From assembly GCA_964521865.1 (NCBI GenBank), contig CAZFTJ010000005.1, positions 7,613 to 71,612 on the forward strand: a DNA stretch of 64,000 nt, read 5' to 3'. The translations under genes and the position numbers were made by a program. Origin of the DNA: an uncultured Spirochaetota bacterium. GTDB lineage: Bacteria; Spirochaetota; B62-G9; DRHN01. This document shows positions 102 to 25,823 of the stretch, in pieces. Below the pieces are notes generated by a model. That model was given only the letters and a program-made list of their open reading frames with translations, did no database searches and was not told the DNA's origin. Within the stretch, counting starts at the first letter, position 1. Every line of letters begins with the position of its first letter.

Positions 102-1190
102 TCAACTTAACTTTTCAGGCGGATATTTCTTAACTGGATCGTCGATTGGTGTTATTATGACTTTTATCGAATTATACTTTGCTTTACTGTTTGAAACTTC
201 AAACGCTTCCTTTATTTTTTCTAATGGAAAACAGTGAGTGATAATTTCATTTGCTTTTAACTGTTTAGACGATAATAGATCAATTGCACTTTGAAATTCT
301 GATTCACCTTCCCAATTCCCATATCCGGTACTCCAAAGAAGATCGATCTGTTTCTCCATACCGGTTTGTAAAGGTACCAACCCTTTATTAAAAAATTCAC
401 CCATAATACCAATAATACCATCGAGCGCAACTATATTAAATGCAATATCGAGTGTATCAGCCTGACCGCCAACTGCTTCGATTACAACATCGGCACCTTT
501 TCCTGAAGTTAATTTATTTATTTCTTTTACAGCCTCCTGCTTACTAATATTTATAATTTCATCAGCATCAGCTATTTCAAGTGCTTTCTTTAATACCTCT
601 TCCCTCCTCCCAATTACAATTATTTTACTATTGCTCCGTAATTTAAAAATCTGAGCTGTGGATAATGCTATTGGACCGGTCCCTATTACAACAACATATT
701 CATTAAACCCCTTACCGACTCTATTATAACAATGTACTCCACATCCATATACGTCTGCAAGAGAGGCTACGTTAAAATCAAGATTATCCAAAATTTTATA
801 TGCATTTTTTTCAGGAACAGTCACATATTCTGCGAATCCGCCATTATACCATATTCCAATATGTTTGACAGAAGGGCATAATTGAAAGGTTCCTTTCAAA
901 CACGCATAGCATTTACCGCACGTAATCTGAGGTTGAACAGTGACTCTGTCCCCTTCACGGATATTTTTTACTAATTTTCCCACGGATACTACTTCACCTG
1001 CCAATTCATGCCCGAGTATAACAGGGGCTGCCTCAGGAAACCATAGTTTCCCACTCCTCCAGCCATGAAGGTCACTTCCGCATATACCGGCCGATTTTAC
1101 TCTTATTTTAACTTCACCGATTTTCGGTGTTGGTTCAGGGACTTCCTTAATTTCTACTGTTCTACCATCTAAAAAAACAGCTGCTTTCAT
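102..1190 (-). CDS. Zn-dependent alcohol dehydrogenase, MDR family (sorbitol/threonine dehydrogenase-like)
   Basis: 362 aa; GHE..GEV catalytic-zinc motif; structural-zinc Cys cluster CGKCYAC..C; Rossmann motif VIGTGPIA. Confidence 0.85.
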   Translation of the reverse strand: MKAAVFLDGRTVEIKEVPEPTPKIGEVKIRVKSAGICGSDLHGWRSGKLWFPEAAPVILGHELAGEVVSVGKLVKNIREGDRVTVQPQITCGKCYACLKGTFQLCPSVKHIGIWYNGGFAEYVTVPEKNAYKILDNLDFNVASLADVYGCGVHCYNRVGKGFNEYVVVIGTGPIALSTAQIFKLRSNSKIIVIGRREEVLKKALEIADADEIINISKQEAVKEINKLTSGKGADVVIEAVGGQADTLDIAFNIVALDGIIGIMGEFFNKGLVPLQTGMEKQIDLLWSTGYGNWEGESEFQSAIDLLSSKQLKANEIITHCFPLEKIKEAFEVSNSKAKYNSIKVIITPIDDPVKKYPPEKLS

Positions 1191-1203
1191 TTTCTCAACA
1201 CCC

Positions 1204-2337
1204 TCAGCTATAAAGATTAACAGACTTTCTCTCGAGCCATGAAAACATCATTGCTTCACAGACTTTATGCACAGGCAAAATAAGCTCCGCACTGGTGACG
1301 GATTTATAAGCAGTACATCGGATTGTCCGTACGAAAGACTCATGCTCATTTTCAAAACACCAAGAAGGTTCGAGTAATTGTTTAATTATATCACCGGTTT
1401 GAAAATCATTTTGAATTACAACAGCCGATTTATTTCTGAGCAATGTCGGGTTCCAACAAACCTTTATGCTTCCTGTATCGCTCCTCATTTCAAGACTCAT
1501 GCCTGTAATGTCAAAATTGAGAAACGCAATATTATAAACAACTCTTGCCGATGGAAATCTTAAAACCGATAGTATTCTTAATGTATGAAAATCATCCGAA
1601 TCATTATGCATCCTGTATACATCTGTATAAATAATCTCTTCAGGTTCACCTAAAAATAGCCTTAAAAGATCTATAGTATGTGATCCACAATCCATTAAAA
1701 ATTCATACGCAAAGCTAATCAATGATCCTTCACACCATGCTGGTCGCCTCATTTTTATTTCAGGAACTGGCTCATCGGTTATGATCATGTGCTTTAAAGC
1801 ACCTGCTTCCCACCCATGAGCTCCTTCTTCTCCACCGCATATTGCAAAATTTACTTCACCAATTTCCCCATTTTTCACTTTTTGTAATGCAAAATCTGTC
1901 CCCCTGTCATAACGCCACATATAGCCAACAACAAGCTTTAGGTTGTATTTGGCAGCTTCCTTAACCATGGCTTTTGAATCATCATAACTCATTGTCATCG
2001 GTTTTTCTATGAGCACATGCTTGCCTCTTCTTAAAGCTTCCATAACTACTTCGTAATGGAGGTCATGATACAACGATACAATTACCGCTTCTACCTCCGA
2101 ATCATTAAGTATATCTTCTATTCGTGTGTATATTTTAAGCGCACCGTATCTTTCACCTACCATATGTGCTAACTTTGGCTTAATATCACATACCGCTTGG
2201 AGGGTTTCAAATTCTGAGAATTGTATAATCGGTAAATGCGCTCCCTGTGCAATCGCCCCGCATCCTATGACACCTACTCGGAGAGGTTCGGCTTTTATCA
2301 ATGAATCATTTTCACTGATATAAATACTTTTATCCAT
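1204..2337 (-). CDS. Gfo/Idh/MocA family NAD(P)-dependent oxidoreductase
   Basis: N-terminal Rossmann motif RVGVIGCGAIAQ..HLP; the track ORF begins at a TTG at 2355; first ATG (MDKSIY) at 2337 has an AAGGGG RBS. Confidence 0.8.
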   Translation of the reverse strand: MDKSIYISENDSLIKAEPLRVGVIGCGAIAQGAHLPIIQFSEFETLQAVCDIKPKLAHMVGERYGALKIYTRIEDILNDSEVEAVIVSLYHDLHYEVVMEALRRGKHVLIEKPMTMSYDDSKAMVKEAAKYNLKLVVGYMWRYDRGTDFALQKVKNGEIGEVNFAICGGEEGAHGWEAGALKHMIITDEPVPEIKMRRPAWCEGSLISFAYEFLMDCGSHTIDLLRLFLGEPEEIIYTDVYRMHNDSDDFHTLRILSVLRFPSARVVYNIAFLNFDITGMSLEMRSDTGSIKVCWNPTLLRNKSAVVIQNDFQTGDIIKQLLEPSWCFENEHESFVRTIRCTAYKSVTSAELILPVHKVCEAMMFSWLERKSVNLYS

Positions 2338-2374
2338 CAACGACCCCTTAATCAATAATTTATTGTTAAACCGA

Positions 2375-3211
2375 TTAGCCTTTTACTGCTCCAAAGGTAA
2401 GACCTCTAACCAAATTATTGAGAACGAGAAATGTAAAAATTATAATGGGAAGTGTTTGAAATACCGCTATGCTGCTTACCACCCCCCAAAGAGTGCCAGA
2501 TTTTATAATTAGTAGAGGTACAGTCACAGTAAGAGTTCTCGTATTATCTGCAGTAAGAACTAACACATAGAGAAGATCATTCCACGAAAAAATGAAAGAA
2601 AATATTGAAACAGTTACCATTCCGGGTGTAACCAAAGGAAGACTAATGCACCAAAAAGCCTTAAATTGACTCGCTCCATCGACTTTAGCCGATTCTTCCA
2701 GGGACGGGGGAAGTTCATCAAAAAAACCTTTCATAAGCCATGTACACAGCACTACATTGTATGCTGCATGTGCCAGGATTATACCGAGGTATCTGTCGAT
2801 AAGATTCAATTTGCTGTACATGATGTACATAGGTACGGCAAGAGTTATCGGGGGTACCATGGTAGTCGCCAATATATACAGGAGAAGATATTTTTTCCCC
2901 AAATATTTAAAGCGGGAAAAACCATATGCAGCAGGTATACCGATAGTGAGAGCTATTAAAGTACTTCCCGATGCAATGACGAGTGAATTTTTCAAATACT
3001 TTAACGCCTTGTATCGTTTAATTGCCATTGAATAATGCTCAAAGGTCGGGTGAAAAATTTTTAAAGGCTTATTTGAAAACATATCAAGTCGAGGTTTAAA
3101 GCTATTCGATATTGTCCATAGATATGGTAAAATACAAATGAGTATTACAAGTAACATAAGAATTAAAAATAAAGTTCTTTTAATGCCATATTTTCTCATA
3201 TAAATTTTCAT
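2375..3211 (-). CDS. carbohydrate ABC transporter permease (MalG/AraQ-like)
   Basis: 278 aa, 6 TM helices; ABC permease EAA-type signature ESAKVDGASQFKAFWCISLPL; 4-bp overlap with the upstream permease gene. Confidence 0.85.
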   Translation of the reverse strand: MKIYMRKYGIKRTLFLILMLLVILICILPYLWTISNSFKPRLDMFSNKPLKIFHPTFEHYSMAIKRYKALKYLKNSLVIASGSTLIALTIGIPAAYGFSRFKYLGKKYLLLYILATTMVPPITLAVPMYIMYSKLNLIDRYLGIILAHAAYNVVLCTWLMKGFFDELPPSLEESAKVDGASQFKAFWCISLPLVTPGMVTVSIFSFIFSWNDLLYVLVLTADNTRTLTVTVPLLIIKSGTLWGVVSSIAVFQTLPIIIFTFLVLNNLVRGLTFGAVKG

Positions 3212-4119
3212 TCTCGTGCTTTTTTTTCATAGTGGTTCCACAGAATAAAGATGAAAGATGCAGTGATAAACATAATAGCAACGATAAAGACAGCAGGCGC
3301 GGTACCATATCCAAGATTCCAGTACATAAAATTAAGCCGATAAATATATAAGTTTACCACTTCAGTTTTGCCACCAGGCCCTCCAAATGTAAGAATATAT
3401 ACAATGTCAAAAATTTTTATCGCATCAATAAGTCGAAATATAAACCCAACTATCAATAAGGGCTTCAGCATTGGAATGGTAATTTTTCTGAATAGCTGAA
3501 AACCACTTGCACCATCAATTCTTGCAGCCTCAAAGGGTTCTTCCGGCAGGGATAAGAGACCTGATAAAAATACAAGACCCAAAAACGGAGTCCATTCCCA
3601 TATATCGACAAGCACTATTACCGCAAAGGCAGTCAATGGATTAGAAAGTGCTGTCGTATCCGAAGTTAATAATCCCAACTTCCTCAAGCAAATATCTAGA
3701 ATACCGTACTGTGGATAGAACATAAACCTCCATACAAGTCCTACCACAACTGGAGCCAACATTGTTGGAATAATGAATAACGAAAGCACAACTCTTCTGA
3801 ATGGAATATGTTGATTGAAGAGAACTGCAATCAACAACCCTAATATCATTTCAACCCCGACTACAATTACAACGAATACCCCCGTAATCATCAGACTATA
3901 TCCAAAAACAGGATCGTCCGTTAAAAGATTTATATAATTTGAAATGCCAACAAACTGACCTTTTTTTTCCGGAACTGCAAGATTATAGTTTCGAAAGCTA
4001 TAATTCAGAGCAATACTAAAGGGTATGAGGATAGTGAAACAAAGAAATAATATGATCGGTATAATCCACGTATATTTGCGAAATAATTTACGTTTTACAT
4101 ATTTATTCCCGGTATCCAT
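3208..4119 (-). CDS. carbohydrate ABC transporter permease (MalF/AraP-like)
   Basis: 303 aa; signature EAARIDGASGFQLFRKITIPMLKP; multiple TM helices. Confidence 0.85.
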   Translation of the reverse strand: MDTGNKYVKRKLFRKYTWIIPIILFLCFTILIPFSIALNYSFRNYNLAVPEKKGQFVGISNYINLLTDDPVFGYSLMITGVFVVIVVGVEMILGLLIAVLFNQHIPFRRVVLSLFIIPTMLAPVVVGLVWRFMFYPQYGILDICLRKLGLLTSDTTALSNPLTAFAVIVLVDIWEWTPFLGLVFLSGLLSLPEEPFEAARIDGASGFQLFRKITIPMLKPLLIVGFIFRLIDAIKIFDIVYILTFGGPGGKTEVVNLYIYRLNFMYWNLGYGTAPAVFIVAIMFITASFIFILWNHYEKKARE

Positions 4120-4194
4120 AATTTTTCATTTTTCCGAGAGATTATACCATACATTGTATAGTATAATCTCTCATAGTATAGGGACGTATTTTAT

Positions 4195-5652
4195 TTATCT
4201 ACCCTCAACGAGCTTCACGGTTCTTGCCTGTGCTTCATCCAGTGCTGTTTTTACAGAGACCATTCCCGCAGCGGCTTTTGAAATAGCTTCTGCCATTATA
4301 TCACTGGCCTGTGGTATCCAAGAATATCCAGGTGGAGCAAAAATCTTCCCACTATCGATTATTGCTAAAGTTGCCTTGAACCATGGATATTTCTTTTGTA
4401 TCTCAGGTAAGGCCATTACTCGTGGATCATGAGTACAGCCGTTCGCATTTTGTACCTCAAGTTGTGCATCATAGGAGTTCAGGTACTGGATAAGAAGGAA
4501 TGCCGCTTCTTTATGTCTTGAGCTCTTCCATATCACCCATTGCGCCATATTTGCCGTAACATTGTATTTGCCTGGTGCCTGGATTGGCGGGACAAAATAA
4601 CCGTTGAGCCCGGCAACTTTTGAATCTTCAGGATTTTCCATAAATGATATGGTATCCGGAGAGGAATTTTCCATAAACACACGCCCGGCAGCATACATTG
4701 AAAATTTTTCATCCCATGCTGCTTCAAGATAACCCGGTGGACAGTATTTTCTTAGAGAAAGCATATATTCTAATGTATTGACCAATTCCGGTGAATTCAT
4801 GGTTGGTTTTCCGTTATCGTCGTTGAACCATCCTCCCATACATACCATAAAGTTCTCCAGCTCGATTGAAGCAGCAGGATGTTGCTTATACGCAACTGTT
4901 ATTCCGTAAAAGTCTTCTGTTAAAATTTTTCCCGATAATTTATCACCCTTTTTTCTTGTAAAAAATTCACACAGATCCGTATATTGCTGGTAATTCTTCA
5001 ACGGGTAATAATTATCCGGAGCTAACGGCAATTCATACCCATATTTATTTTTAAATGCGATTCTTTCTTCTTTATTCGCTGCAATATCTTTTCGGTAAAC
5101 CATCATCTGTGTATTATTAAAGCAAGGAACTCCATAATACACCCCCTTCCACAAACTTGCGTCATCTACCATAGCTTTGGGGAGCAGCTTCCAGGGATCA
5201 TAGGATGGATCCCGAAGATCGGAATTATTCAGGAACTTTTCTATCGGTTCTACCCAATTGTTTTCAACATTCAGACCAAGTTCACGCCAAGAGACGAGGC
5301 TAAAATCATAAATGTGAGTCCCAGCAAGAAAATCTGATTTTGTTTTCGCCTGTCGTTCAGCATAATCTGCATATTCGATATCTACGTTAATCCCGGTCAA
5401 CTTCTCGAAGTTTTTAACCGGACCTTCAAAAGCCTGCATTCCTGCCCATGGTTCAAAAATAACTTTGAGGTTTTGGCCCTTGTACGGCATTGCCGCTCTC
5501 TCAAGAGTCCACTCTTTCACTTCCTGAGTTAATGGTTTGGGTTCTGGAGCTGGTTCCTCTTTTTTACTCCCTGCATAGAGATTTCCAATGTAAATTCCAA
5601 AACAAACAACTACTGATAACAATAGTGACCGCGTCAACAATTTTCTGTTCAT
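4195..5652 (-). CDS. ABC transporter extracellular solute-binding protein (sugar/oligosaccharide type)
   Basis: 485 aa; N-terminal signal peptide; typical SBP family-1 composition; sits in the operon with the two permeases. Confidence 0.75.
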   Translation of the reverse strand: MNRKLLTRSLLLSVVVCFGIYIGNLYAGSKKEEPAPEPKPLTQEVKEWTLERAAMPYKGQNLKVIFEPWAGMQAFEGPVKNFEKLTGINVDIEYADYAERQAKTKSDFLAGTHIYDFSLVSWRELGLNVENNWVEPIEKFLNNSDLRDPSYDPWKLLPKAMVDDASLWKGVYYGVPCFNNTQMMVYRKDIAANKEERIAFKNKYGYELPLAPDNYYPLKNYQQYTDLCEFFTRKKGDKLSGKILTEDFYGITVAYKQHPAASIELENFMVCMGGWFNDDNGKPTMNSPELVNTLEYMLSLRKYCPPGYLEAAWDEKFSMYAAGRVFMENSSPDTISFMENPEDSKVAGLNGYFVPPIQAPGKYNVTANMAQWVIWKSSRHKEAAFLLIQYLNSYDAQLEVQNANGCTHDPRVMALPEIQKKYPWFKATLAIIDSGKIFAPPGYSWIPQASDIMAEAISKAAAGMVSVKTALDEAQARTVKLVEGR

Positions 5653-5767
5653 AGCTATCCTCCTTAAAAAATATAAAATTTATTTTAAAAGTATCATGAT
5701 GCCCCGACCTGCGTTGATATCCAAATAATTCTATTAAATCTTTGGAGCTCTCAATTTAATGAGTTAG

Positions 5768-6739
5768 TTACTTATTTTTCTTTATTGAAATAGCCCTATC
5801 AATCATACGCTCTATAGTAAATTGTGGACAGTATCCAAGAAAATTTCTCGCCTTTGCAATACTTATCTCATACGGTTCTATATGATCGACCCTCGCACTG
5901 TCCCATTCTACTCCCAAACCTTTAGCTACTCTTTCAATGACGTCCAGATATCGAAAAGACGACGGTCCTGCAATATTGAATAAATTGTTTTTTATAGTTG
6001 CATGTTTCTCAATTGCAAGAATAATTCCTTCTGCAATGTCTTCAGGATCTGCACAATGATCAACAGCAGACTCACTATTTGCACATAAAGGGGCAAAGAC
6101 ACCTTTACCATTTGCCAGTTTAGGACCCAGCTTTCTCCTGTCCGCTGGTTTAAGAAATTTTTCCCATAACTCATATTCAAATAGTTTCAATACTTCCATA
6201 CCGGCTAACGTCCATGATATTCGCAAGATAATCCATGGAATATCGTATAATCTGCCGTAATTGATACACATTATCTCGCCTAATATTTTTGTGAGAGCAT
6301 AAAATCTGCTGGGAAAAATTTCAGTTTCTTCAGTCACTGGTGTTTTAAACTTTTTAAACCCGGTAGAATACACCGCATCTGTGCTCGCATAAAGAAAAAG
6401 CTTAAGATCCTTCACTTTATTTGCGGCTTCCAAAAGGTTATATGTACCTCTCACAATAATTTCAAATAACCGATCATTCTCCTTCTCAATAACTTCGGGC
6501 CCAAACATGTCAAAAACAGCAGCAAGATGACAAATAATTTTACATCCGCGTACTAGCTTCTCTAATTCTTGTTTATCTAATAAATCTCCATACACAAGTT
6601 CTAATTTATTATTAATAACTCCTTCAGGTTTATGATGATGAATTAAAGCCTTTACGCTATAGCCCCGTTCTAATAAAGACTTCAGCACGAAACGGCCAAT
6701 ACGTCCTGTTCCTCCAGTGAGAAAAATAGATTCTTTCAT
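5768..6739 (-). CDS. NAD-dependent epimerase/dehydratase family protein (extended SDR)
   Basis: N-terminal GGTGRIG Rossmann motif; catalytic Y..K spacing; 323 aa. Confidence 0.8.
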   Translation of the reverse strand: MKESIFLTGGTGRIGRFVLKSLLERGYSVKALIHHHKPEGVINNKLELVYGDLLDKQELEKLVRGCKIICHLAAVFDMFGPEVIEKENDRLFEIIVRGTYNLLEAANKVKDLKLFLYASTDAVYSTGFKKFKTPVTEETEIFPSRFYALTKILGEIMCINYGRLYDIPWIILRISWTLAGMEVLKLFEYELWEKFLKPADRRKLGPKLANGKGVFAPLCANSESAVDHCADPEDIAEGIILAIEKHATIKNNLFNIAGPSSFRYLDVIERVAKGLGVEWDSARVDHIEPYEISIAKARNFLGYCPQFTIERMIDRAISIKKNK

Positions 6740-6812
6740 TGTCCTATCTCTTAACTAGAAGCTATATTTATCCGCAGTATTTCTTGAATATTTCTTTACG
6801 CATCGATTCACA

Positions 6813-8291
6813 TTATTTATCAACCGGAAAAGGCCTGTATTCCACACCTTCACGTTTATAAATAGCCGCTACTTTTCTTTCCAATTCAGTAACGATTTTA
6901 TTGGATAAATGATTTAGTCTGTGCTCTTCGAGTATTTGTCGAACCCTCTCTATTGCCCTCTCCCGAATATCTTTGCACCCGTTCGCTTCCCATTTCTGGC
7001 GAACGGTCCTATCGGATATTGTAGGAAAGTACTGTTCTTCCTTGAAAAATTTTAATGTATGCTCATGCTCTAAAAAATTCCCCCCATGACCAATCTCTTG
7101 AATTATATCTATGGCAAGTTTTTCCTCTGTTACATGTATTCCCTTTAAAATTCTTTTAACATACCCTGCTATTTCTTCATCTATTACTACCTGTTCATAG
7201 TTCGCACTTTCACCACTATTGATTAGACCGCCAACAAGAGCAATTTCATCCGCACCTGCCATTGCTGCTAAAAGTACTCCCATCATTTTTTCATAGCCGG
7301 CCTGTTGATCTGGAACCTTCGCATCAGTCTGCCCAACAATAATATTGGATGGAATTTGATAATATTTTGCGAGCTGCGTAAACCCTACGCACATGAGCAC
7401 CTGTTCGGGACACCCGAACACATTTGTAACAGCTCTCATGTCCATAATCCCGGGCCAAGACATATATATAACCGGCGCTCCGGGGTTTACCAACTGATTG
7501 AGCACTATACCACTCAAGGCCTCAGCATTACCCTGGACAAGAGAACCTGAAAGTGTAACGGGATGCATGGAGCCCGAAAGAGGCATGGGGAGTATTTCAT
7601 TCGGAAGCCTTACTTTTGCTGTTTCGATTATAACAATTGCCTCTTTGCTCCAGGTTAGCGCTCTTTGTGGGAGAACAGTCATGTTAAAAGTTTTTTTCTT
7701 ACCAATTTCATTACGTCCACCCTCTACAATCTCGACCAAATCGATGAGATCATCCGTTGTTTTTTGATCGAGTCCGTCTCCAGCAGGAATAACCTTGCCG
7801 TTATTTTTTACCAGAACTTCAAAATATCGAGCATGAAAGACTTCAGCAGGAATGTCCTGAGCCCAGATCATTCCATTGCCTATTTCAAGATATTCCATAG
7901 CATCAGAAAGACGTGCAAAATTTGCAATATCCTGTTCTACCCCTTTTCTAAACCTGCCTTCAAGATCCAGTACATAAGCAGTGGTCGATCCCACACCAAA
8001 ATGAACATCTCTATCACCAAATCGAATGGGAGAATGTCTCCTTTGATCCAAGGGATATCTTGTAAATGAAGGAGGTGCAGAACGAATACATGCTTCAACT
8101 ATACCGGGAGGAAAATACACTGTATTATTATCACCGATAGTCAATCCTGCCTTGCGAAATACTTTCAAAGCGCTTTCACAGTGGAATTGGATTCCAGTAT
8201 TTTCTAAAATATCAATAGTAGCGACATGTATACGGTATAACTCGTCGTCGCTCAATATACGAAATGGGGCTTTGGATTGGACTAATATCAT
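6813..8291 (-). CDS. MttB-superfamily methyltransferase (trimethylamine methyltransferase family), no in-frame amber codon, so a non-pyrrolysine member
   Basis: 492 aa; N-terminus LSDDELYRIHVATIDILENTGIQFHCESALKVFRKAG matches the MttB-family N-terminal consensus; the ORF is uninterrupted. Confidence 0.7.
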   Translation of the reverse strand: MILVQSKAPFRILSDDELYRIHVATIDILENTGIQFHCESALKVFRKAGLTIGDNNTVYFPPGIVEACIRSAPPSFTRYPLDQRRHSPIRFGDRDVHFGVGSTTAYVLDLEGRFRKGVEQDIANFARLSDAMEYLEIGNGMIWAQDIPAEVFHARYFEVLVKNNGKVIPAGDGLDQKTTDDLIDLVEIVEGGRNEIGKKKTFNMTVLPQRALTWSKEAIVIIETAKVRLPNEILPMPLSGSMHPVTLSGSLVQGNAEALSGIVLNQLVNPGAPVIYMSWPGIMDMRAVTNVFGCPEQVLMCVGFTQLAKYYQIPSNIIVGQTDAKVPDQQAGYEKMMGVLLAAMAGADEIALVGGLINSGESANYEQVVIDEEIAGYVKRILKGIHVTEEKLAIDIIQEIGHGGNFLEHEHTLKFFKEEQYFPTISDRTVRQKWEANGCKDIRERAIERVRQILEEHRLNHLSNKIVTELERKVAAIYKREGVEYRPFPVDK

Positions 8292-8350
8292 TCTATGTTC
8301 CCATTCATTACCGGTTGATTTTTATCGTGCATTAATACGCGTCTCCAGGT

Positions 8351-9532
8351 TTAATTTCCAAACTTTTCGGCCCATTTATAAAGACGCTCGCGGTAATATC
8401 TAAAATTTTCCCACGAAATCCCACATGGAACCAGATGATCAATAAAAGGAATATATCCTCCCTGCTCCAACATAATGGGCAGCTTTGAGCGCAACTCCTC
8501 GTCAATTGCTTCCTTACCCACAGCGACTTTTCTTTTGTCGATCCCTCCCATCATTTTCAATTGCGGGAATTTTTTCCTGACCGCAACAACATTCATCCCC
8601 GCCGCAACTTCAAACGGATATAATCCTGTAACACCACAATCGAGCAAAATAGGAATAAGCTCACTGATATTTCCATCTGAATCGACAAAAATATTTTTCA
8701 CTCCTTTTGAAATAACCGCATTAATAAATTTTTTATAATACGGCATAAAAAAATCTCTAAACATCTTGGGAGATATCAAGGGTCCATTCTTGTACGCCAT
8801 ATCCTCCCAGATATGAATGCAGTCGACTTCGATCTCATTTAGTATTGATGTTATGAGCTCTATATAGAAATCAGTGAGATATTCTAACATTGATATAATG
8901 AGCTTAGGGTCATCGTAGAATGAATAGAGAAGACGCTCGACACCCATCAGGGCTCTTAAATAACCAAAAAAACCAAAGGGATACCCCCCTAAAGCAAGAG
9001 GATAATCTCTTTGCTTGTACCTTTCGCGTCTATTCCGCCAATCATCGGGAAGTCTTTTCTCTAAATCCGGCTGAAATCGTTTTTTCAGTTTTACAAAATC
9101 GGACAATTCCTTTACAGGATAGAACAAGAATTGCGGTATTGATTTCCCGTCCTTTCTGGTTTTCATACCAACTCCCATCTGGTCGATGATTACTATATTT
9201 TCTCCTTCGTATCTGAGCACCTTTTCTTCAAACGGCGGCTCCATCCCCAAATTCAATGGGACAGCAACGGTGGGGGAATCAAAGTGAAAAAATGCCGCTA
9301 CATCTGTGTCATGAGGCTCTTGTCCTATTTCATTCCATGGATACGCCTCACCAATTACAGTACCATCCCAAAATAGTGAAACGTTCGTCCACTTATTACT
9401 GGATGTAATTTTCGGCAAGCCCTCTTTCCACCATCGATTGTATACGTCCCGCCAGTAACCGAACTCCCACATCATTGTCCTGGTTCCTGTGGTAAAGTCC
9501 ATAATGGAAAGAAATCTTTCTCGCGAGTTCAT
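8351..9532 (-). CDS. uroporphyrinogen-decarboxylase (URO-D) family protein, MtaA/CmuA-like methylcobamide methyltransferase-like
   Basis: 393 aa; N-terminal ERFLSIM.. and C-terminal VDSDGNISELIPILLDCGVTGLYPFE resemble URO-D family motifs; adjacent to the MttB-like gene. Confidence 0.55.
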   Translation of the reverse strand: MNSRERFLSIMDFTTGTRTMMWEFGYWRDVYNRWWKEGLPKITSSNKWTNVSLFWDGTVIGEAYPWNEIGQEPHDTDVAAFFHFDSPTVAVPLNLGMEPPFEEKVLRYEGENIVIIDQMGVGMKTRKDGKSIPQFLFYPVKELSDFVKLKKRFQPDLEKRLPDDWRNRRERYKQRDYPLALGGYPFGFFGYLRALMGVERLLYSFYDDPKLIISMLEYLTDFYIELITSILNEIEVDCIHIWEDMAYKNGPLISPKMFRDFFMPYYKKFINAVISKGVKNIFVDSDGNISELIPILLDCGVTGLYPFEVAAGMNVVAVRKKFPQLKMMGGIDKRKVAVGKEAIDEELRSKLPIMLEQGGYIPFIDHLVPCGISWENFRYYRERLYKWAEKFGN

Positions 9533-9547
9533 GAGATTCTCTTGCGT

Positions 9548-10825
9548 TTACGAATAATTCATCACAGGTTTTTTATTTCCTCTTTTAAGCTTTGCAACCG
9601 TTTTACTGATCGATTCAATCATATAATCGACTTGTGAATCTGTTAATGAGAGATTGATTGGTGTATCTGTGAGCTGAGAATAGATCCGATCGGCCTGTGG
9701 ACAATTGATTCTTGGATACCCCAATTCTGTGAATATTTTAAAACGGTACGGTGGAAGATAATGTGGGATCGATTTGATCCCAAACTCATGGTATAAAATG
9801 TTCACAAAGTCATCCCGATTTGAATTAAAATTACTTCCGTCGAACAAGATAGGGTAAAGATGGAAAGCATGCGACCGATCATCTGGAATATGGGGTGCGG
9901 TAATACCTTCTATATCTTTTATACCGGCATTCATATGAGCTGCAATCTCATTTCTACGAGCATTCATCCATTCCAACTTTTTTAACTGTACTCTGCCGAC
10001 ATTGGCCTGTACATCACTGAGACAATAGTTATACGGAATCCTCCCTTTAATTGTTTTTACATCATAAAGAAATGGTATCCAATACTTTTCCAGATTTTCA
10101 TACATATCCATACCCACCCATCTCGCAAGAGGAATCAGGTCCGCAAATTCTTTTTTATTGGTTGTTATCATTCCGCCTTCACCCAATGTTGTGATGTTCT
10201 TTACCGTGTGAAAACTGAAACAGCCAAAATCTCCGAAAGTACCTGTTTTTTTACCTTTGTATACCGCCCCTAAAGAGTGAGCGCAATCTTCGACAACTTT
10301 TAAATTCTTTTTCGTCGCGAGCTTCATGATAGGTCCCATATCAGCAGGTAATCCATTTAAATGAACCACATAAATGGCTTTTGTTTTTTCAGTTATTTTT
10401 TCAGAAATTGTATCGGCCGTTATCGTATAGGTAACCGGATCAATGTCGGCAAAAACTACCTTTGCCCCGACTCTAAGAAGGGGAATAACTGTGGCAATAA
10501 AAGTAACTGCAGGAACAATGACCTCGTCCCCTTGTCCAATTTCCAGTATTTGTGTAGCGATTTCCAGCGCTCCTGTGCAACTGGAAACGCCGAAAGCATA
10601 TTTTGTGCCTATGTATTCCGCGAATTCTGTTTGGAAGAGTTTGAGATACGGACCTTGTGTGAAAATATCTCCCTGTATTGCTTCAATAACAGCCTGCACC
10701 TCTTCTAAACCATAGTGGGGTCCAACTTCTCGATACGGTACTTTCAACCCTTCTTGTTGTATTGCCTGCTTATAAATACCGCTCCAATCACTTTTTTCTT
10801 TGCTTTCATTTGGATCCATTTGCAT
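9548..10825 (-). CDS. DegT/DnrJ/EryC1/StrS family PLP-dependent aminotransferase
   Basis: 425 aa; characteristic blocks GDEVIVPAVTFIAT, VVEDCAHSLGA, FGDFGCFSFHTVKNITTLGEGGMITT. Confidence 0.85.
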   Translation of the reverse strand: MQMDPNESKEKSDWSGIYKQAIQQEGLKVPYREVGPHYGLEEVQAVIEAIQGDIFTQGPYLKLFQTEFAEYIGTKYAFGVSSCTGALEIATQILEIGQGDEVIVPAVTFIATVIPLLRVGAKVVFADIDPVTYTITADTISEKITEKTKAIYVVHLNGLPADMGPIMKLATKKNLKVVEDCAHSLGAVYKGKKTGTFGDFGCFSFHTVKNITTLGEGGMITTNKKEFADLIPLARWVGMDMYENLEKYWIPFLYDVKTIKGRIPYNYCLSDVQANVGRVQLKKLEWMNARRNEIAAHMNAGIKDIEGITAPHIPDDRSHAFHLYPILFDGSNFNSNRDDFVNILYHEFGIKSIPHYLPPYRFKIFTELGYPRINCPQADRIYSQLTDTPINLSLTDSQVDYMIESISKTVAKLKRGNKKPVMNYS

Positions 10826-12633: not shown

Positions 12634-13302
12634 ATGTGCACCTACATCTTAATGAAGATACTTGAATCCACCCCACACAGGTATGACAGGGGCATTCGCA
12701 TTCTCACACTCGGGAGATTGGACGGGGCGTACGATCGTTTAACCTCTCTCATAAAAAGAAGGCAGCGTGTCCTTGATATTGGATGCGGTACCGGTGCATT
12801 AACGGTAAGAGCCGCTTTTAAGGGCGCAAAGGTAAAAGGGATTGATGTCAATGAACAGATGCTGGAAATCGCGAAAAAGAGGGTAGCGGAAGCAAAACTC
12901 GAACAAAGTGTTGAGCTATGTGAGATGGGTGTTGCGGAGCTCGAAGGCGAAGAGGCGGCAAACTACGATGTTGTTATGAGCGGTCTCTGTTTCTCTGAGT
13001 TAACCGGGGATGAATTGATTTATACCTTGAAAGAGGTAAAGAGGATCCTGAAGCCGGGAGGCGCTGTGCTCATTGCAGATGAAATAAGACCCAACGGCAT
13101 TTCAAAGAGGATACTCAATTGGCTGATACGGTTCCCGCTTGTAATAATTACCTGCCTTGTGACCCAAACTACGACACGTGCCGTACGGAATTTGCCGGAA
13201 AAGATGGAAGAAGCGGGTTTTTTAATTGAATCGGTCAGATTGAATAAAATAGAAAGTTTTATTGAGCTTTTTGGAAGAAAACCTGAGGAAACGGTGCAAT
13301 GA
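12634..13302 (+). CDS. class I SAM-dependent methyltransferase (Methyltransf_11/25-like) with a hydrophobic C-terminal segment
   Basis: Motif I VLDIGCGTGALT; acidic loop GIDVNE; 222 aa; its stop overlaps the start of the next gene (ATGA). Confidence 0.8.
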   Translation: MCTYILMKILESTPHRYDRGIRILTLGRLDGAYDRLTSLIKRRQRVLDIGCGTGALTVRAAFKGAKVKGIDVNEQMLEIAKKRVAEAKLEQSVELCEMGVAELEGEEAANYDVVMSGLCFSELTGDELIYTLKEVKRILKPGGAVLIADEIRPNGISKRILNWLIRFPLVIITCLVTQTTTRAVRNLPEKMEEAGFLIESVRLNKIESFIELFGRKPEETVQ

Positions 13303-14456
13303 ATCTTCTCAAGTATATTCTTGTGAGTATTATCGAAACTTTGCTGAGAGGCTTCCCTTTCCCCTGTAAGACAGGTTTGATTAAAATAGGGAGTCCGGGC
13401 AGGAATTCACCTGTTATTCTGACCTGTAATTATCATTTGACTGTTGTAAAAGTCAAAAGAGCGTTGAAAGAAACGGACTGTTATCTCCTTGTAGCAAATA
13501 GCAGAGGACTCAATGTATGGTGCGGCTCCGCCGGCGGGCATTTGACAAATCACTCTATTATATCCGCTCTAAAGACCAGCGGGATAGAAGAACATGTGCA
13601 TCATAGATATGTAATACTTCCTCAACTCGCTGCCGCAGGAATCGAATCGAGAGTCATCAAGAAAAAGACGGCATGGAAGATCGTCTGGGGGCCGGTTTAT
13701 GCGAAAGATATACCGGCTTTCATAGAAAGCAATTTCAAAAAAACTGCCGAAATGAGGGAGATACGTTTCCCCTTGGGGCAGCGGATTGAAATGGCTGTTA
13801 TGTGGGCATTTCCATTTTCAATCATCGCATCCATTATAATAATTCCTTTCCGGCCCGGAATGCTTTTACCTTTAAATGCTCTTATCTGGGGCTTATCATT
13901 TTTAATATTCACGTCCTTCCCCCTGTATTCCGGCTGGCTCAATCGAAAGAAGAATCCGACGGGTGTCAGCAGGTACTCGATTATCTTTGATTTCGGTCGC
14001 ATCCCCCTGGTTATTTGGATAATTTTTCTATCGTGTCTTGTCGTCGTAAGCATTTTCGTAAACGCTTTTACATGGGGATTCGTTTTACGCTGGGGATTCA
14101 TGTCATTCGTTATCCTTCTTCTGATAAGCGGTGATCTCATGGGCAGCACCCCGGTTTACAAGAGTGGTTTGCACGAAGAGAGATTTTTCAAGGTCATGCT
14201 CGATAAAAAAAAGTGCAGAGGAGCCGGTTTTTGTGAGCTGGTCTGCCCGCGTAATTGTTATGAAGTGGATAAAAATCGGCATGTTGCCACCATGCCGGGG
14301 GCGAACCGGTGCGTACAGTGCGGCGCGTGCATAGTTCAGTGCCCGTTCGATGCCCTGTATTTTGAAAGCCCGGAAGGTGAAATAATACCTCCTGAATCTG
14401 TCAGAAGATTTAAATTAAATCTTATGGGCAAACGGCTTGTGAAACAGGATTCTTAA
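13299..14456 (+). CDS. HgcA-like corrinoid-binding membrane protein fused to an HgcB-like 4Fe-4S ferredoxin domain (HgcAB-fusion paralog family)
   Basis: Residues 30-160 align with the HgcA corrinoid domain (PVILTCNYHLTVV, cap-helix-like LLVANSRGLNVWCGSAGG, VILPQLAAAGIE, VWGPVYAKDIPAFI); four to five TM helices at 165-290; C-terminal CRGAGFCELVCP plus CVQCGACIVQCP ferredoxin. Confidence 0.75.
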   Translation: MNLLKYILVSIIETLLRGFPFPCKTGLIKIGSPGRNSPVILTCNYHLTVVKVKRALKETDCYLLVANSRGLNVWCGSAGGHLTNHSIISALKTSGIEEHVHHRYVILPQLAAAGIESRVIKKKTAWKIVWGPVYAKDIPAFIESNFKKTAEMREIRFPLGQRIEMAVMWAFPFSIIASIIIIPFRPGMLLPLNALIWGLSFLIFTSFPLYSGWLNRKKNPTGVSRYSIIFDFGRIPLVIWIIFLSCLVVVSIFVNAFTWGFVLRWGFMSFVILLLISGDLMGSTPVYKSGLHEERFFKVMLDKKKCRGAGFCELVCPRNCYEVDKNRHVATMPGANRCVQCGACIVQCPFDALYFESPEGEIIPPESVRRFKLNLMGKRLVKQDS

Positions 14457-18559: not shown

Positions 18560-19609
18560 TTATTCTGGGAATTCGATCAGGGTCTTCAAACCCTCTCCGC
18601 TCATAGCATATGCAAATGCTTCTTTAATCTCGGCGATTCTGAAGCGCTTGCTTATGATCGATTTCGTATCAACCTTTCGATCTTCTATCAGCTTTATCGA
18701 CCGTGCATAATCATACTGCGCATATCTCGTCGTTCCCGTCAGAACGAGGTTGTTGTAATGAATACGATTCGTGTCGAGCCGGACAAGCTCCTTTCCCTGC
18801 GGCAGGCCGCCGAACAGGTTTATTCTCCCTCCCTTTGCTGCAAGCTCCACGGACTGCCGTTGTACATCAGGAACAGGACAGGCTGTAATAATCACATCCG
18901 CCCCGGCCCCATCTGTATGGCGACTCACCGCTTCGGCAAGGTCTTCCTTCTCAGAATTGACGATGATATCGGGATTAAACTTTTGAATGAGGTTGAGTCT
19001 GGCATCGGAGATATCAGCCATCATGATTTTCCCCGCCCCTGCAATGCGTTGAATCAAGAGATGCAGGACGCCCATGGGCCCTGCCCCAACAATCAGAACG
19101 TTATCACCGGGCTTTGTGTGTACTGAACGGTATGCAAAGTAGCAGCACGCGAGCGGTTCTGCAAGTGCCGCTTCTTCGAAGCCGATATCTTTTTTGAACG
19201 GTACAAGATCACCCTGCACGATTGCCTTGGAATAAATCCTCATATATTCTGCAAAGCCGCCGTTTATTGTGATACCAAACGCATCGTAATCGGGGCAGAG
19301 GTGAAATTTTCCTATTTTACAATAGCGACACCTCCCACACCCGATGTTTGGGGCAACCGCAACCCTCATTCCTTTCGCATATCCTTTTACATCAGAACCA
19401 ACCTCCCAGATCTCCCCTGAAATCTCATGTCCCAGTATCCTTGTTTCGCCCTCACCTATCCTGTGGTGACCACTCTTAAAGATCCTGAGGTCCGTGCCGC
19501 ATATATTCGCGGCTCTCACCCTGAGGAGCATCTCATCTTTAGCGATCTTTGGAACCGGAACTTCATGCGCTTCGATCTTACCGATACCACTGAATACTGC
19601 AGCACGCAT
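18560..19609 (-). CDS. Zn-dependent alcohol dehydrogenase, MDR family (threonine/sorbitol dehydrogenase-like)
   Basis: CGTDLR.. GHE..GEI catalytic zinc motif; CGRCRYC structural zinc motif; GAGPMG Rossmann motif. Confidence 0.85.
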   Translation of the reverse strand: MRAAVFSGIGKIEAHEVPVPKIAKDEMLLRVRAANICGTDLRIFKSGHHRIGEGETRILGHEISGEIWEVGSDVKGYAKGMRVAVAPNIGCGRCRYCKIGKFHLCPDYDAFGITINGGFAEYMRIYSKAIVQGDLVPFKKDIGFEEAALAEPLACCYFAYRSVHTKPGDNVLIVGAGPMGVLHLLIQRIAGAGKIMMADISDARLNLIQKFNPDIIVNSEKEDLAEAVSRHTDGAGADVIITACPVPDVQRQSVELAAKGGRINLFGGLPQGKELVRLDTNRIHYNNLVLTGTTRYAQYDYARSIKLIEDRKVDTKSIISKRFRIAEIKEAFAYAMSGEGLKTLIEFPE

Positions 19610-19761
19610 GTTTCAAACCTCCACTCTGATCCCTTCCGAGTCTCTTTTGGCTGAAGTTGATATCTTTCAGTTGTAAAATAATATTTTTTTTGTTAATATA
19701 TTCAAAAAATTTATTTCAATTCTATAATATTTATGCAATAATAATAACTGGAGGCTGAACG

Positions 19762-20622
19762 ATGCCCGAGAATGATATTCTTTTGTTGAAGATCAGGGGC
19801 TTGCTCTCATCACTTAGTCCTGCTTTAAAAAAAATAGCTCTCTACATTCTAAATAATCCACAGAAGGTAAAGCTGTTGCGCATAAAAGACCTCGCCTCAA
19901 GCTGTGGTGTTGCAGAAGCAACAATTACACGGTTTGTAAAGACCATCGGCCTTGGAAGCTTCCAGGAGTTGAAGATCAATATTGCCGAGCTCACCAAAGA
20001 GAGTAATGTCGAGAAAGAGCTCGTATACGACGATGTAACGATAGGCGATTCTATAAAGAGTATCGTAGATAAAATCGTTGCCATTAATATCAAGGCATTG
20101 AACGACACTAAAAAGCTGATAAACATAAAAGAAACAGAGAGGGCAATAGCTGCAATACATAAAGCAAAGCAGATAGATATCTACGGTGCAGGCGGTTCCT
20201 ATATCACTTCCGAGAATGTCCGCATGCGGTTCTACAGAATAGGGAAGCGCTGTATCATATACAACGACCCGAACCAGCAGGCTGTATCAGCCTCGCTGCT
20301 TACTTCAAAGGATCTCGCCATAGGTATATGTAATTCGGGCCGCACGATCTCCACCGTCAATGCATTAAAACGAGCCAAGGAAAGCGGTGCCGTTACTATT
20401 TGCATTACCAACTTCGATCAGACGCCTATAACAAAGTATGCCGACATCAAGCTCTTTACATCGACCCAGGACTCCGCATTCTTTCAGGAATCGATGGTTT
20501 CAAGAGTGGCACAAATTATCATAGTGGACATCCTCTATGCGGGACTTGCGATACGCACCTTCGATACATCTATTAAAAAGATCGAGAAATCATCGGCCTC
20601 TCTGAGAAATGTCCTTATGTAG
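19762..20622 (+). CDS. MurR/RpiR family transcriptional regulator (HTH + SIS domain)
   Basis: N-terminal HTH LRIKDLASSCGVAEATITRFVKTIG; C-terminal SIS-like sugar-phosphate-binding region. Confidence 0.85.
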   Translation: MPENDILLLKIRGLLSSLSPALKKIALYILNNPQKVKLLRIKDLASSCGVAEATITRFVKTIGLGSFQELKINIAELTKESNVEKELVYDDVTIGDSIKSIVDKIVAINIKALNDTKKLINIKETERAIAAIHKAKQIDIYGAGGSYITSENVRMRFYRIGKRCIIYNDPNQQAVSASLLTSKDLAIGICNSGRTISTVNALKRAKESGAVTICITNFDQTPITKYADIKLFTSTQDSAFFQESMVSRVAQIIIVDILYAGLAIRTFDTSIKKIEKSSASLRNVLM

Positions 20623-20799
20623 ATGCATTCCAGGAAATCTTCAAATCTCCTCCACCTCCAGGTCCGGTACCTGGTCGGTATATTTCAATCCCGTTTTGAT
20701 AGATGCGAAAAAAAGCGCTGCAATAGAAAATTCCAGAAAATTTCTACTCAGGATTGGGATGATGAAAAAATTCTTAATGCGCAGATTATTATATATATC

Positions 20800-21888
20800 T
20801 TACGCACCGAATTTTCTTCTCCGCCACTGATCGAAAACAACAACGCCAATGATTACGAGCCCCATAACAACGCGCTGCCAGAAAGCAGATACATTGAGAA
20901 GGTTAAGACCGTTTCCCAGCACGCCCATGATGATTGCACCGATCAAGCTGCCGATTATAGTCCCCTCGCCGCCGAAGAGGTTGGTTCCGCCGATAACAAC
21001 GGCTGCAATACACTTCAGCTCAACACCTGTTGCCATGAGTGCATTGGCTGAATTCATGCGTCCCGTAAGCACAATACCGGCCATTGCTCCCATCATCCCC
21101 ATTATCATGTATGTTGAAATCTTTATACGATCTACCTTGAGACCGGATACTCGTGCTGCTTCTCGATTTCCACCGACAGCAAATATGGACCTTCCCAATA
21201 CCGTTTGCGACAATACTATCCAGCCTATAAATACGATAAGGATAGCGATAAGCGGTCCGGTTGGAATGCCAAAAAGCTCCTTCCCGCCCATCCATATTAT
21301 GGCGTCAGGCAAATATCCCTTGAGCTCAGTTGCGGTCAAGTGTGAAGGAATCGGCAATCCGCCTGTGACAAGAAGGGCAACACCGCGTGCTGCCTCCATC
21401 ATACCGAGAGTTGCAACAAAATCCGGAATTCGCCCCTTGGCAATAATGATACCGTTTATCGCCCCTGCAACCGTTCCCACAAGAAATCCAATGAGCATTG
21501 CCGACCATGCACTGATTGGCCCAAAAGATACGCCGAGGAAGGTGATGGTCTGTGTCGCAAGCACTGCCATAATCGAAGCAGACACAGCCATTACGGCACC
21601 AACAGAAAGGTCGATCCCTGCACCGATGATTACCATAGTCTGTCCGACTGCAAGGATGATGAGGTATGCATTTTGTTCCCCTATATTTTTTAAGTTGCTT
21701 ACTGTTGCAAAATGAGGAGAAGCGAGTGAAAAGTACAAAACAAGAAAGAGCAGGGCAATGATAGGACCGCCACGAAGCAGCGTCGACCACCCTATAGTAC
21801 GCATACCGACACCTCTTTTCATCCCGAGCTTCACCGATGCTTTTGCATCGGGATTCTTACGCTGCCTCATCCGCCCCTGCATTTTCAT
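20800..21888 (-). CDS. sugar ABC transporter permease (ribose/xylose RbsC-type)
   Basis: 362 aa; multiple TM helices; BPD-transport-2 style composition; 4-bp overlap with the ATPase gene. Confidence 0.85.
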   Translation of the reverse strand: MKMQGRMRQRKNPDAKASVKLGMKRGVGMRTIGWSTLLRGGPIIALLFLVLYFSLASPHFATVSNLKNIGEQNAYLIILAVGQTMVIIGAGIDLSVGAVMAVSASIMAVLATQTITFLGVSFGPISAWSAMLIGFLVGTVAGAINGIIIAKGRIPDFVATLGMMEAARGVALLVTGGLPIPSHLTATELKGYLPDAIIWMGGKELFGIPTGPLIAILIVFIGWIVLSQTVLGRSIFAVGGNREAARVSGLKVDRIKISTYMIMGMMGAMAGIVLTGRMNSANALMATGVELKCIAAVVIGGTNLFGGEGTIIGSLIGAIIMGVLGNGLNLLNVSAFWQRVVMGLVIIGVVVFDQWRRRKFGA

Positions 21889-23381: not shown

Positions 23382-23430
23382 ATTATACTTCCTCTTCGTG
23401 TATAGTTATTTGAACGCTTCGCATCCGGAG

Positions 23431-24192
23431 TTATTGAGCAGTATAACCTCCATCTACGGAAAGAACCGAACCTATCGTATATTTTGATTCATCTGAAGCC
23501 AGAAAGAGAATACCGGTTGCTATTTCCTCCGGCTTTCCCATTCGCTTCAATGGACGATCATCCGATAAAACTCTTCGCGTCTCTTCAGGGTCCTCTGAGT
23601 TATCTATTATCTTTTCAACAAGAGGCGTCAATGTTCTTCCCGGACATATGCAATTTATCCGAATATTTTTTGTTGCAAAATCAACGGCAGTGCTCCTTGT
23701 CAGTGCAATGACCCCGCTTTTCGACACATTATATGCCACCTGATTTGCTATTCCAACCAGACCTGCTTCAGATGCTATATTAACAACAGATCCGCCGCCG
23801 CCTTTAACCATATATGGAATACAATACTTCATGCAGAGGAATATTCCAAGGAGGTTTATTCCCAGGATACGATTCCAGGTCTCTTCCGGTGTACTGACCA
23901 CATCGCCTTCTGAAAAGATTCCTGCAACATTGATGAGTATGTCCAGTCTCCCATATGTATCGACTGTGACCTTCACCATATTCAGGACGTGCGACGAGTT
24001 GGAAACATCAGCAGGAATAAAAATCGCACTTCCGCCCATCTCCTTTATCATACTGACTGTTCTTTCACCCGCTTTCTCATCGATATCAACGACAACAACC
24101 TTTGCACCTTCTTGTGTAAAAAGCAATGCCGTGGTTCTCCCGATTCCGGAACCGGCGCCTGTAATTATTGCAACCTTATCTACCAGTTTCAT
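23431..24192 (-). CDS. SDR family oxidoreductase
   Basis: TGAGSGIG cofactor motif; catalytic Y..K; 253 aa. Confidence 0.85.
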   Translation of the reverse strand: MKLVDKVAIITGAGSGIGRTTALLFTQEGAKVVVVDIDEKAGERTVSMIKEMGGSAIFIPADVSNSSHVLNMVKVTVDTYGRLDILINVAGIFSEGDVVSTPEETWNRILGINLLGIFLCMKYCIPYMVKGGGGSVVNIASEAGLVGIANQVAYNVSKSGVIALTRSTAVDFATKNIRINCICPGRTLTPLVEKIIDNSEDPEETRRVLSDDRPLKRMGKPEEIATGILFLASDESKYTIGSVLSVDGGYTAQ

Positions 24193-24259
24193 CTTCTTCT
24201 TCCTTAATAAAAAAATAGGGATAGAAACCCTTGCAGGTTCCTATCCCCATCAACGACCC

Positions 24260-25456: not shown

Positions 25457-25823
25457 GATGCCCCTCCTTTGAAAAATAGATTTATATACACAAAGCAGGT
25501 CACATTGAATCCGCTTTACAATGCAGGACACAGCTTTTAGGTGTATAGCCTTATAAATAACAGTGGCGATTAAACGGTGCAGTGCAATTAAAAATCAAAA
25601 TTCGGAGCTTTATTCACGCAGGGATACACATGGTGTTATACCACTATTAATTTACCTACTCTTAACCGCTATTTCATATTATTGTATCACCAAATAAAAG
25701 TCTGTCAAATAAATTTTTTTTTTTATAATAATATTCAATCTTATTTTTTTCGATAACTCATTACCAAATACCGACGGTCGGTTGTGTTCGATATAAATTG
25801 TCTGCCGGTAAAAGGAGCAAATT

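Follow-up and report, generated by a model that had tools for sequence, protein, structure and literature searches.

In a 64,000-nucleotide stretch of DNA from an uncultured Spirochaetota bacterium (GenBank assembly GCA_964521865.1, contig CAZFTJ010000005.1, positions 7,613 to 71,612 of the forward strand; this whole stretch is called the window, and its contig C5), nine co-directional minus-strand genes at 102-10825 include one for an MttB-superfamily methyltransferase (6813-8291) and one for a URO-D-fold protein beside it (8351-9532). We suggest, with a probability of about 0.6, that this operon was horizontally acquired, is controlled by a LacI-family regulator, and encodes a corrinoid-dependent route for N-demethylation and deamination of an imported, methylated amino-sugar-like compound, with the corrinoid carrier supplied in trans. 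The sequence-only reading of this stretch had described a non-pyrrolysine MttB-family enzyme paired with a URO-D/MtaA-like protein in a sugar and amine catabolic operon that lacks a corrinoid protein, and had left a choice between a carrier encoded elsewhere and a corrinoid-independent function. We find that the catabolic setting holds, as the operon encodes an aminotransferase, a sugar ATP-binding cassette (ABC) importer, sugar dehydrogenases and a LacI regulator. A carrier encoded elsewhere is now well supported, a corrinoid-independent function has become the weaker alternative, and the partner has the URO-D fold but resembles MtaA no further than the superfamily.

The MttB open reading frame (ORF; 6813-8291, minus strand) starts with ATG and has no internal stop. 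Its product of 492 amino acids (aa) matches the Pfam MTTB profile PF06253 with 332.3 bits (cut-off 25) over nearly the full length, with residues 4-475 corresponding to profile positions 25-493 of 500. Comparison with solved structures gave MtgB (2QNE/9YCE, E 1e-73, residues 9-476) and MttB (7XCM, E 1.5e-66). The protein missed the threshold of TIGR02369, the equivalog model for pyrrolysine (Pyl)-type trimethylamine methyltransferases (422.9 bits vs 525), its Gln321 aligns with pyrrolysine 334 of Methanosarcina barkeri MttB (7XCM), and the gene has no in-frame amber codon. The earlier assignment of this protein to the non-pyrrolysine MttB family is therefore borne out.

The substrate pocket sets this enzyme apart from its characterized relatives. 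MtgB binds the quaternary nitrogen through Y97 and F356 and the carboxylate through R312 and H348, and R312 (MtgB numbering), which salt-bridges the acidic moiety bound in the pocket, is reported to be conserved across all members of known function (PMC13080624). The non-Pyl members characterized so far all take acidic quaternary amines (PMC12155760, PMC13080624). In a pairwise HMMER alignment, Y97/R312/H348/F356 of MtgB, all four shifted uniformly by +2 in 9YCE, correspond to S102/N316/L352/G360 of the window MttB. The mapping rests on this pairwise alignment because none of the genome's own MttB paralogues, used as an internal control, carries an MtgB-type Y/R/H/F signature. The aromatic pair available for cation-pi contacts in MtgB is missing, with Ser102, which is invariant, in place of Y97 and Gly360 in place of F356. 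Both S102 and N316 are invariant in 21 members of the clade to which the window MttB belongs; the clade is marked by the signature residues S102, Y106, N316, Q321 and D/E/N358 and by the motifs IPSNIIVGQTD(S/A)K and DEIALVGGLI(D/E/N)xG. Since the betaine-binding residues are replaced, a betaine-type substrate is unlikely, and the smaller, more polar pocket of the clade would suit a hydroxylated amine. Judged by sequence, the window MttB is outside the characterized group of betaine demethylases, whose Arg312 and aromatic pair it lacks, and also outside the Pyl-type MttB proteins.

Pfam scans of the nine operon genes and the adjoining LacI gene detected no B12-binding domain, in agreement with the earlier observation, and the nearest B12-binding match on the contig of the MttB gene lies ~83 kb away. 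The genome (4.22 Mb in 40 contigs, 97% complete) is well equipped for corrinoid chemistry at other places. Its MttB-family matches number 21 (about 20 genes), its URO-D matches 50 and its B12-binding matches 20, of which 12 are small corrinoid proteins of 210-250 aa; it further encodes two RamA-type activases, one MtrH homologue and a Wood-Ljungdahl core with acetyl-CoA synthase (ACS), three pterin-binding proteins and four methylenetetrahydrofolate reductase (MTHFR) genes. A small corrinoid protein is encoded within 3 kb of 8 of 20 MttB-family matches and is absent from the surroundings of the remaining 12, so that a carrier-less MttB gene is the commoner state in this organism. That the carrier of the window operon is encoded elsewhere in the genome is, we conclude, well supported. 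An MttB-family fragment with an in-frame TAG at C3:17365-18025, possibly a pyrrolysine-type gene or a pseudogene, adjoins another MttB paralogue and a corrinoid-protein fragment.

The strongest pointer to a particular carrier comes from a paralogous operon in the same genome. The closest database relative of the window MttB (P0002, 74% identity) is a paralogue at C6:154940-156418; the corrinoid protein on the public contig of P0002 is 100% identical to that at C6:154282-154905, and the gene order there is the same. This corrinoid protein, of 207 aa with PF02607 and PF02310 domains and a DLHDIG version of the DxHxxG motif, is encoded directly upstream of the MttB paralogue with a spacing of 34 nucleotides (nt). 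The C6 operon (C6:151666-167216) has a G+C content (GC) of 35% and a DDE transposase upstream, and its genes encode, in order, LacI, DegT, the corrinoid protein, MttB, a substrate-binding protein (SBP), two permeases, a URO-D protein of the HxC type, a xylose-isomerase-like TIM barrel, an unassigned protein of 483 aa, a zinc-dependent alcohol dehydrogenase (Zn-ADH) and an unassigned protein of 425 aa. Between the window and C6 operons, identities are 74% for MttB, 52% for DegT, 46-49% for the permeases, 41% for the SBP, 28% for LacI and 26% for URO-D, and the slot between DegT and MttB holds the carrier gene in the C6 operon and the URO-D gene in the window. A second carrier with 94% identity to the C6 protein stands alone at C3:182246-182878 and is a candidate hub carrier. 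The genes around it encode a NUDIX protein, a sodium:solute symporter, a class V aminotransferase and a 2-hydroxyacid dehydrogenase. A complex prediction for the window MttB with the C6 corrinoid protein scored 0.12 against a mark of 0.32; it was run without controls, gives no verdict and counts neither way.

This carrier lineage is also found in other organisms that carry the MttB clade. Four other species-representative genomes contain a clade member (one each from Spirochaetota, Candidatus Aerophobus, Planctomycetota and Omnitrophota), with the copy in the Spirochaetota genome, a family-level relative, 69% identical to the window MttB. Each of the four encodes small corrinoid proteins together with a pair of RamA genes; among 14 control genomes, RamA gave a match in just one. 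In the Planctomycetota and the Omnitrophota genome there is only one small corrinoid protein apiece (locus L066, from contig C85 of genome G043, at 6727-7356, and locus L067, from contig C8 of genome G044, at 6520-7155, respectively). Both are orphans amid housekeeping genes and share 56-61% identity with the C3/C6 carriers; the next-best match of the Omnitrophota protein among the carriers of the source genome is only 44% identical. Orphan carriers of the C3/C6 lineage give these genomes a layout that resembles a hub carrier serving dispersed first methyltransferases. The housekeeping neighbors at these two loci (L066 and L067) include pseudouridine synthase and PlsY/GpsA genes, and both RamA genes are located elsewhere in each genome.

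The second line of evidence is the company that the MttB gene keeps. The first gene of the window operon (9548-10825, minus strand) encodes a DegT/DnrJ/EryC1-family, pyridoxal phosphate (PLP)-dependent sugar aminotransferase of 425 aa (PF01041, 354.7 bits), whose top solved relative is the glutamine--scyllo-inositol transaminase 7B0D (218 bits), which retains the catalytic-lysine motif SFHTVK at residues 204-209 and which is 52-54% identical to the DegT proteins encoded beside orthologous MttB genes. Orthologues of MttB (58-75% identity) are rare and spread across phyla. Besides the window and the C6 paralogue, we inspected 20 loci, a few of which are the same record retrieved by different routes, and limited the linkage count to the 16 loci with at least about 2.5 kb upstream. 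An aminotransferase gene adjoins MttB in 15 of the 16, and it comes from three unrelated families: DegT in the window, C6, L031, L048, L060 and the P0017 context; class IV, accompanied by a diaminopimelate (DAP)-dehydrogenase-like gene, in L029/L030, L053-L056, L063, L064 and L027; and class III in L060 and L061. A sister-clade MttB gene (46% identity) overlaps its own DegT gene by 4 nt. That one aminotransferase family can stand in for another at this position argues strongly that transamination is part of the pathway. Further genes that recur nearby encode sugar regulators of the LacI or GntR type, ABC or major facilitator superfamily (MFS) transporters for sugars and Zn- or Fe-dependent alcohol dehydrogenases, as well as GatZ/KbaZ, a dihydrodipicolinate synthase (DHDPS)-type aldolase, galactokinase and glycoside hydrolases including members of GH2, GH101-like and GH123. 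In the body of literature that was searched, we found no paper that describes an MttB clade tied to aminotransferases, amino sugars, methylated sugars or Sphaerochaeta.

In the route that we infer, the ABC system would import a methylated, amine-bearing, sugar-like compound, which could be an amino sugar, an aminocyclitol or an amino polyol. The MttB-family enzyme would act as the substrate:corrinoid methyltransferase (MT1) and pass an N-methyl group to a small corrinoid protein in the Co(I) state, supplied in trans and most probably of the C6:154282-154905 / C3:182246-182878 lineage, which one of the two RamA activases would keep active. From there the methyl group may move to tetrahydrofolate (THF) and into the genome-encoded Wood-Ljungdahl pathway. 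The DegT aminotransferase would then deaminate the demethylated amine to a keto sugar, to be processed further by the short-chain dehydrogenase/reductase (SDR), GFO/IDH/MocA and Zn-ADH enzymes of the operon. Observed here are the gene identities, the corrinoid machinery of the genome, the carrier gene beside the paralogue, the aminotransferase linkage and the altered pocket; the substrate class, the choice of carrier, the order of the reactions and each activity in this route are proposals.

The place of the URO-D protein in such a route is less clear-cut. The protein (8351-9532, minus strand; 393 aa) scored 53 bits against the Pfam URO-D profile PF01208 (cut-off 23.9), compared with 214 bits for the genome's best URO-D match. 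All MtaA/CmuA-type models stayed under their cut-offs (34.8 vs 235.4 and 38.4 vs 244), and in the MtaA/MtbA set, TIGR01463, NF040654 and NF041608 gave 34.8 of 235.4, 28.6 of 400 and 25.2 of 600, respectively. Its AlphaFold2 model (pLDDT, the predicted local distance difference test, 92.8) lies as far from UroD as from MtaA, with template modeling (TM) scores of 0.5-0.6 and 11-18% identity (11-15% for the UroD structures). At the MtaA zinc motif HxCGN the protein reads D284-S-D286-G-N, and the His and first Cys ligands are thus Asp284 and Asp286; D284, D286, E243, D244, E308, D365 and H366 are invariant across 46 homologues. An alignment of the genome's URO-D matches (n = 48) placed 21 in an HxC type, 16 in an HxD type and 6, including the window protein, in a DxD type. 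The two closest homologues (51% and 48% identity) adjoin sugar ABC transporters and have no MttB gene nearby, and homologues at 48-49% identity adjoin corrinoid proteins. We conclude that the protein is not an MtaA-type thiol methyltransferase and that the MtaA likeness noted earlier is that of the superfamily fold only; it is probably a corrinoid-dependent methyltransferase of an uncharacterized DxD (carboxylate-site) subfamily. As to its role, we slightly favor a second substrate demethylase, at a little under even odds, with a somewhat smaller chance for a carrier-unloading second methyltransferase (MT2). The slight tilt follows from the large and diverse URO-D family of this genome and from its MtrH- and pterin-type candidates for the THF step. 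The claim that characterized bacterial systems use pterin-binding or MtrH-type second methyltransferases proved correct. A methyltransferase island at C23:9667-27899 encodes a URO-D protein of the HxD type, a corrinoid protein, an MttB paralogue, a small ORF and a DxD-type URO-D paralogue with 40% identity to the window protein, together with a 613-aa fusion of URO-D and B12-binding domains in a CmuA-like layout and, on the opposite strand, RamA.

Several points weigh against the demethylation and deamination route. The main weakness is chemical. Known non-Pyl MttB enzymes take a single methyl group off a quaternary amine. Because a single demethylation of a quaternary amine yields no primary amine for the aminotransferase, either demethylation of a secondary N-methylamine or several successive demethylations must be assumed, and this chemistry is unprecedented. 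An adjacent corrinoid protein is the exception, found in only 1 of ~17 clade loci, that of the C6 paralogue. The URO-D proteins encoded beside orthologous MttB genes are just 24-36% identical to that of the window. Lastly, no operator common to the C5 operon and the C3/C6 carrier genes was found, the region upstream of the C3 carrier having neither the C5 nor the C6 repeat, and co-regulation with a distant carrier could therefore not be demonstrated.

It could be asked if the carrier is truly missing, with the MttB-like TIM barrel (and perhaps that of the URO-D protein) co-opted for chemistry that needs no corrinoid, for instance as an isomerase, a lyase or a hydrolase whose substrate is an amine-bearing sugar. 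The lack of a nearby corrinoid protein in 16 of the ~17 clade loci and the loss of all four betaine-binding residues would fit such a recruitment. We nevertheless consider it unlikely, as the 74%-identical paralogue has a canonical corrinoid protein with a DxHxxG motif encoded 34 nt away, 5 of 5 clade genomes possess RamA and small corrinoid proteins with a conserved carrier lineage co-occurring, and unlinked carriers are experimentally documented in the superfamily: in Eubacterium limosum, MtpB, MtcB and MtyB rely in common on MtqC, MtqA and RamQ, whose genes lie apart from theirs (PMC8604678), and MtgB of Ruegeria pomeroyi is likewise unlinked from MtgC/MtgD (PMC12478193). About equally improbable is a methanogen-style pair, in which MttB would be the first methyltransferase and the URO-D protein an MtaA/MtbA-type second one that methylates a thiol, for example coenzyme M, with only the carrier borrowed. 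Here the adjacency of the two genes (59-nt gap), the weak matches of the URO-D protein to MtaA/MtbA models and MtaA structures, and the order of corrinoid protein, MttB, small ORF and URO-D on C23 have to be set against the invariant Asp284 and Asp286 in place of the zinc-site His and first Cys, a score of 34.8 where the MtaA/CmuA model requires 235, and the occurrence of the closest URO-D homologues without MttB. The genome's 50 URO-D matches for 12 carriers also point to substrate-specific enzymes. Moreover, the low identity of the linked URO-D proteins, compared with 58-74% for MttB and 52-54% for DegT, indicates that there is no fixed MttB/URO-D partnership; the URO-D protein has not co-evolved with the MttB clade, and we rejected a dedicated pair.

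An ordinary betaine-type methyltransferase acting on a quaternary amine (glycine betaine, proline betaine, carnitine, gamma-butyrobetaine or phosphocholine) and sitting in a sugar operon by chance would agree with MtgB as the top solved relative (E 1e-73) and with the acidic quaternary amines used by all characterized non-Pyl members (PMC12155760, PMC13080624). The pocket argues otherwise, with an invariant Asn for Arg312 in the clade and Ser and Gly for both cation-pi aromatics, and so does the linkage to an aminotransferase and to sugar regulators, transporters and enzymes, which recurs across several phyla. The Pfam scan also found no betaine-type transporter of the BCCT or OpuA kind among the operon genes. 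On pocket residues, linkage and transporter content, we rejected this reading, which we regard as very unlikely.

Comparison with known systems places the proposed route of the window operon between several precedents. Like the glycine betaine:corrinoid:THF system MtgB/MtgC/MtgA of Desulfitobacterium hafniense (2QNE, 9YCE), it would rely on a non-pyrrolysine enzyme of the same superfamily and fold, for which the same mechanism, methyl transfer to a Co(I) corrinoid protein, is expected. The window MttB differs from that MtgB at Y97S, R312N, H348L and F356G, its operon has neither a carrier nor a pterin-type MT2, and an aminotransferase, a sugar transporter and sugar dehydrogenases replace the betaine transporter as neighbors. 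The mechanistically closest precedent is that of E. limosum MtpB/MtcB/MtyB, where many MttB paralogues draw on a common carrier, MT2 and activase encoded in separate clusters, a layout that we also propose for the source genome; those enzymes act on acidic quaternary amines and have retained the residue equivalent to Arg312 (PMC13080624), whereas the window clade has Asn and is tied to transamination. With the trimethylamine:coenzyme M system MttB/MttC/MtbA of Methanosarcina (7XCL-7XCN), the operon shares the pairing of an MttB-family MT1 with a URO-D-fold protein. However, the window MttB has Gln321 at the Pyl334 position and scores below the TIGR02369 cut-off, its URO-D neighbor lacks the His-x-Cys zinc ligands, and its host is a bacterium with a Wood-Ljungdahl pathway and no methanogen. 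The UroD-superfamily corrinoid methyltransferases of anaerobic bacteria, namely O-, S- and halide demethylases such as OdmB/VdmB, and the Mlp proteins, have the URO-D fold in common with the window protein and, like its homologues, adjoin corrinoid proteins, and large paralogue families of this kind occur in methylotrophic anaerobes as they do in the source genome (superfamily overview PMC10418091). The window subfamily has an invariant Asp-x-Asp with Glu, Asp and His residues instead of the His-Cys-Cys of Mlp and MtaA proteins, and its context is one of sugar ABC transporters, as opposed to aromatic or sulfur metabolism.

The rest of the operon fits a sugar-directed function. The ORF list gives gaps of -4 to 115 nt between its genes. 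Downstream of MttB, on the same minus strand, are genes for an NAD-dependent epimerase/dehydratase-family SDR of 323 aa (5768-6739; PF01370, 107 bits; top solved relative the SDR 4ID9), a sugar-type ABC substrate-binding protein of 485 aa (4195-5652; Pfam match SBP_bac_1/8), and a pair of ABC permeases of the PF00528 family resembling MalF/G and GlcT/U (3208-4119 and 2375-3211, overlapping by 4 nt). These are followed by a GFO/IDH/MocA-family NAD(P)-dependent sugar or cyclitol oxidoreductase of 383 aa (1204-2355; PF01408, 95 bits), whose closest solved relatives are DgpA, glucose-fructose oxidoreductase and inositol dehydrogenases, and a Zn-dependent medium-chain alcohol/polyol dehydrogenase of 362 aa (102-1190; PF08240 plus PF00107), for which the nearest NCBIfam model is scyllo-inosose 3-dehydrogenase IolM (197 bits, under the cut-off). 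The last gene of the operon, just left of the window at C5:6432-7559, encodes the LacI-family regulator, identified by Pfam scan.

Upstream of the DegT gene, a candidate promoter with a TTGACA box (10957-10952, minus strand) is followed by a 36-nt palindrome (10931-10896, minus strand) with the core TTAACCGCTTAC/GTAACCGGTTAA, a candidate LacI-type operator. The core occurs once in the genome, at the C5 operon (exact match to the right half-site). The promoter regions of the C6 operon bear a repeated operator-like motif, AATCGAAAACATG..., unlike the C5 operator. With a GC of 38.5%, compared with 47.7% for the genome, the operon appears to be horizontally acquired, and the absence of the clade from both same-genus genomes searched was counted towards a foreign origin. 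An E. coli origin was discarded when the E. coli genome collection yielded no match. Further along the window, a SAM (S-adenosylmethionine) methyltransferase gene at 12634-14456 is translationally coupled to one for a CdhD-like/4Fe-4S protein, and a second sugar-type cluster at 18560-25531 encodes a Zn-ADH, an RpiR/SIS regulator, a ribose-type ABC permease, an ATPase and a binding protein.

One locus suggests what a fuller version of the route might look like. In Candidatus Aerophobus (L029, 8260-10685), a class IV aminotransferase gene and a DAP-dehydrogenase-like gene are followed by the orthologous MttB and then by two different URO-D genes; three methyltransferases ahead of a deamination step could carry out three successive demethylations. 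The methylamine series MttB/MtbB/MtmB offers an analogy for stepwise demethylation. By this analogy, we tentatively put forward, as a possibility that is less probable than the route itself, a stepwise anaerobic pathway that demethylates and then deaminates glycan-derived amino sugars or aminocyclitols carrying one, or possibly two or three, N-methyl groups. The MttB clade would take the first methyl group and the divergent URO-D proteins further N- or O-methyl groups, a hub corrinoid protein would feed them into acetogenesis, and the aminotransferase would free the carbon skeleton.

To our knowledge, a substrate is known for only a minority of MttB-superfamily proteins. The clade described here is distinct in that it has lost the betaine-binding residues, is tied to three unrelated aminotransferase families and is embedded, across four or more phyla, in operons for the uptake and oxidation of sugars, features that point to a substrate class undescribed for the family, such as a methylated amino sugar. 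The carrier gene beside a close paralogue and the co-occurrence of its lineage make the corrinoid-dependent reading testable with the window MttB, the C3/C6 carrier and RamA. If the stepwise route is true, it would give the MttB superfamily its first class of substrates that are neither acidic nor betaines, and would be a new mode of methyl harvest for sugar-degrading anaerobes among the Spirochaetota, Planctomycetota, Omnitrophota and Aerophobetes. We suggest that the clade may link glycan and amino-sugar breakdown to B12-dependent methyl harvesting in anoxic habitats.

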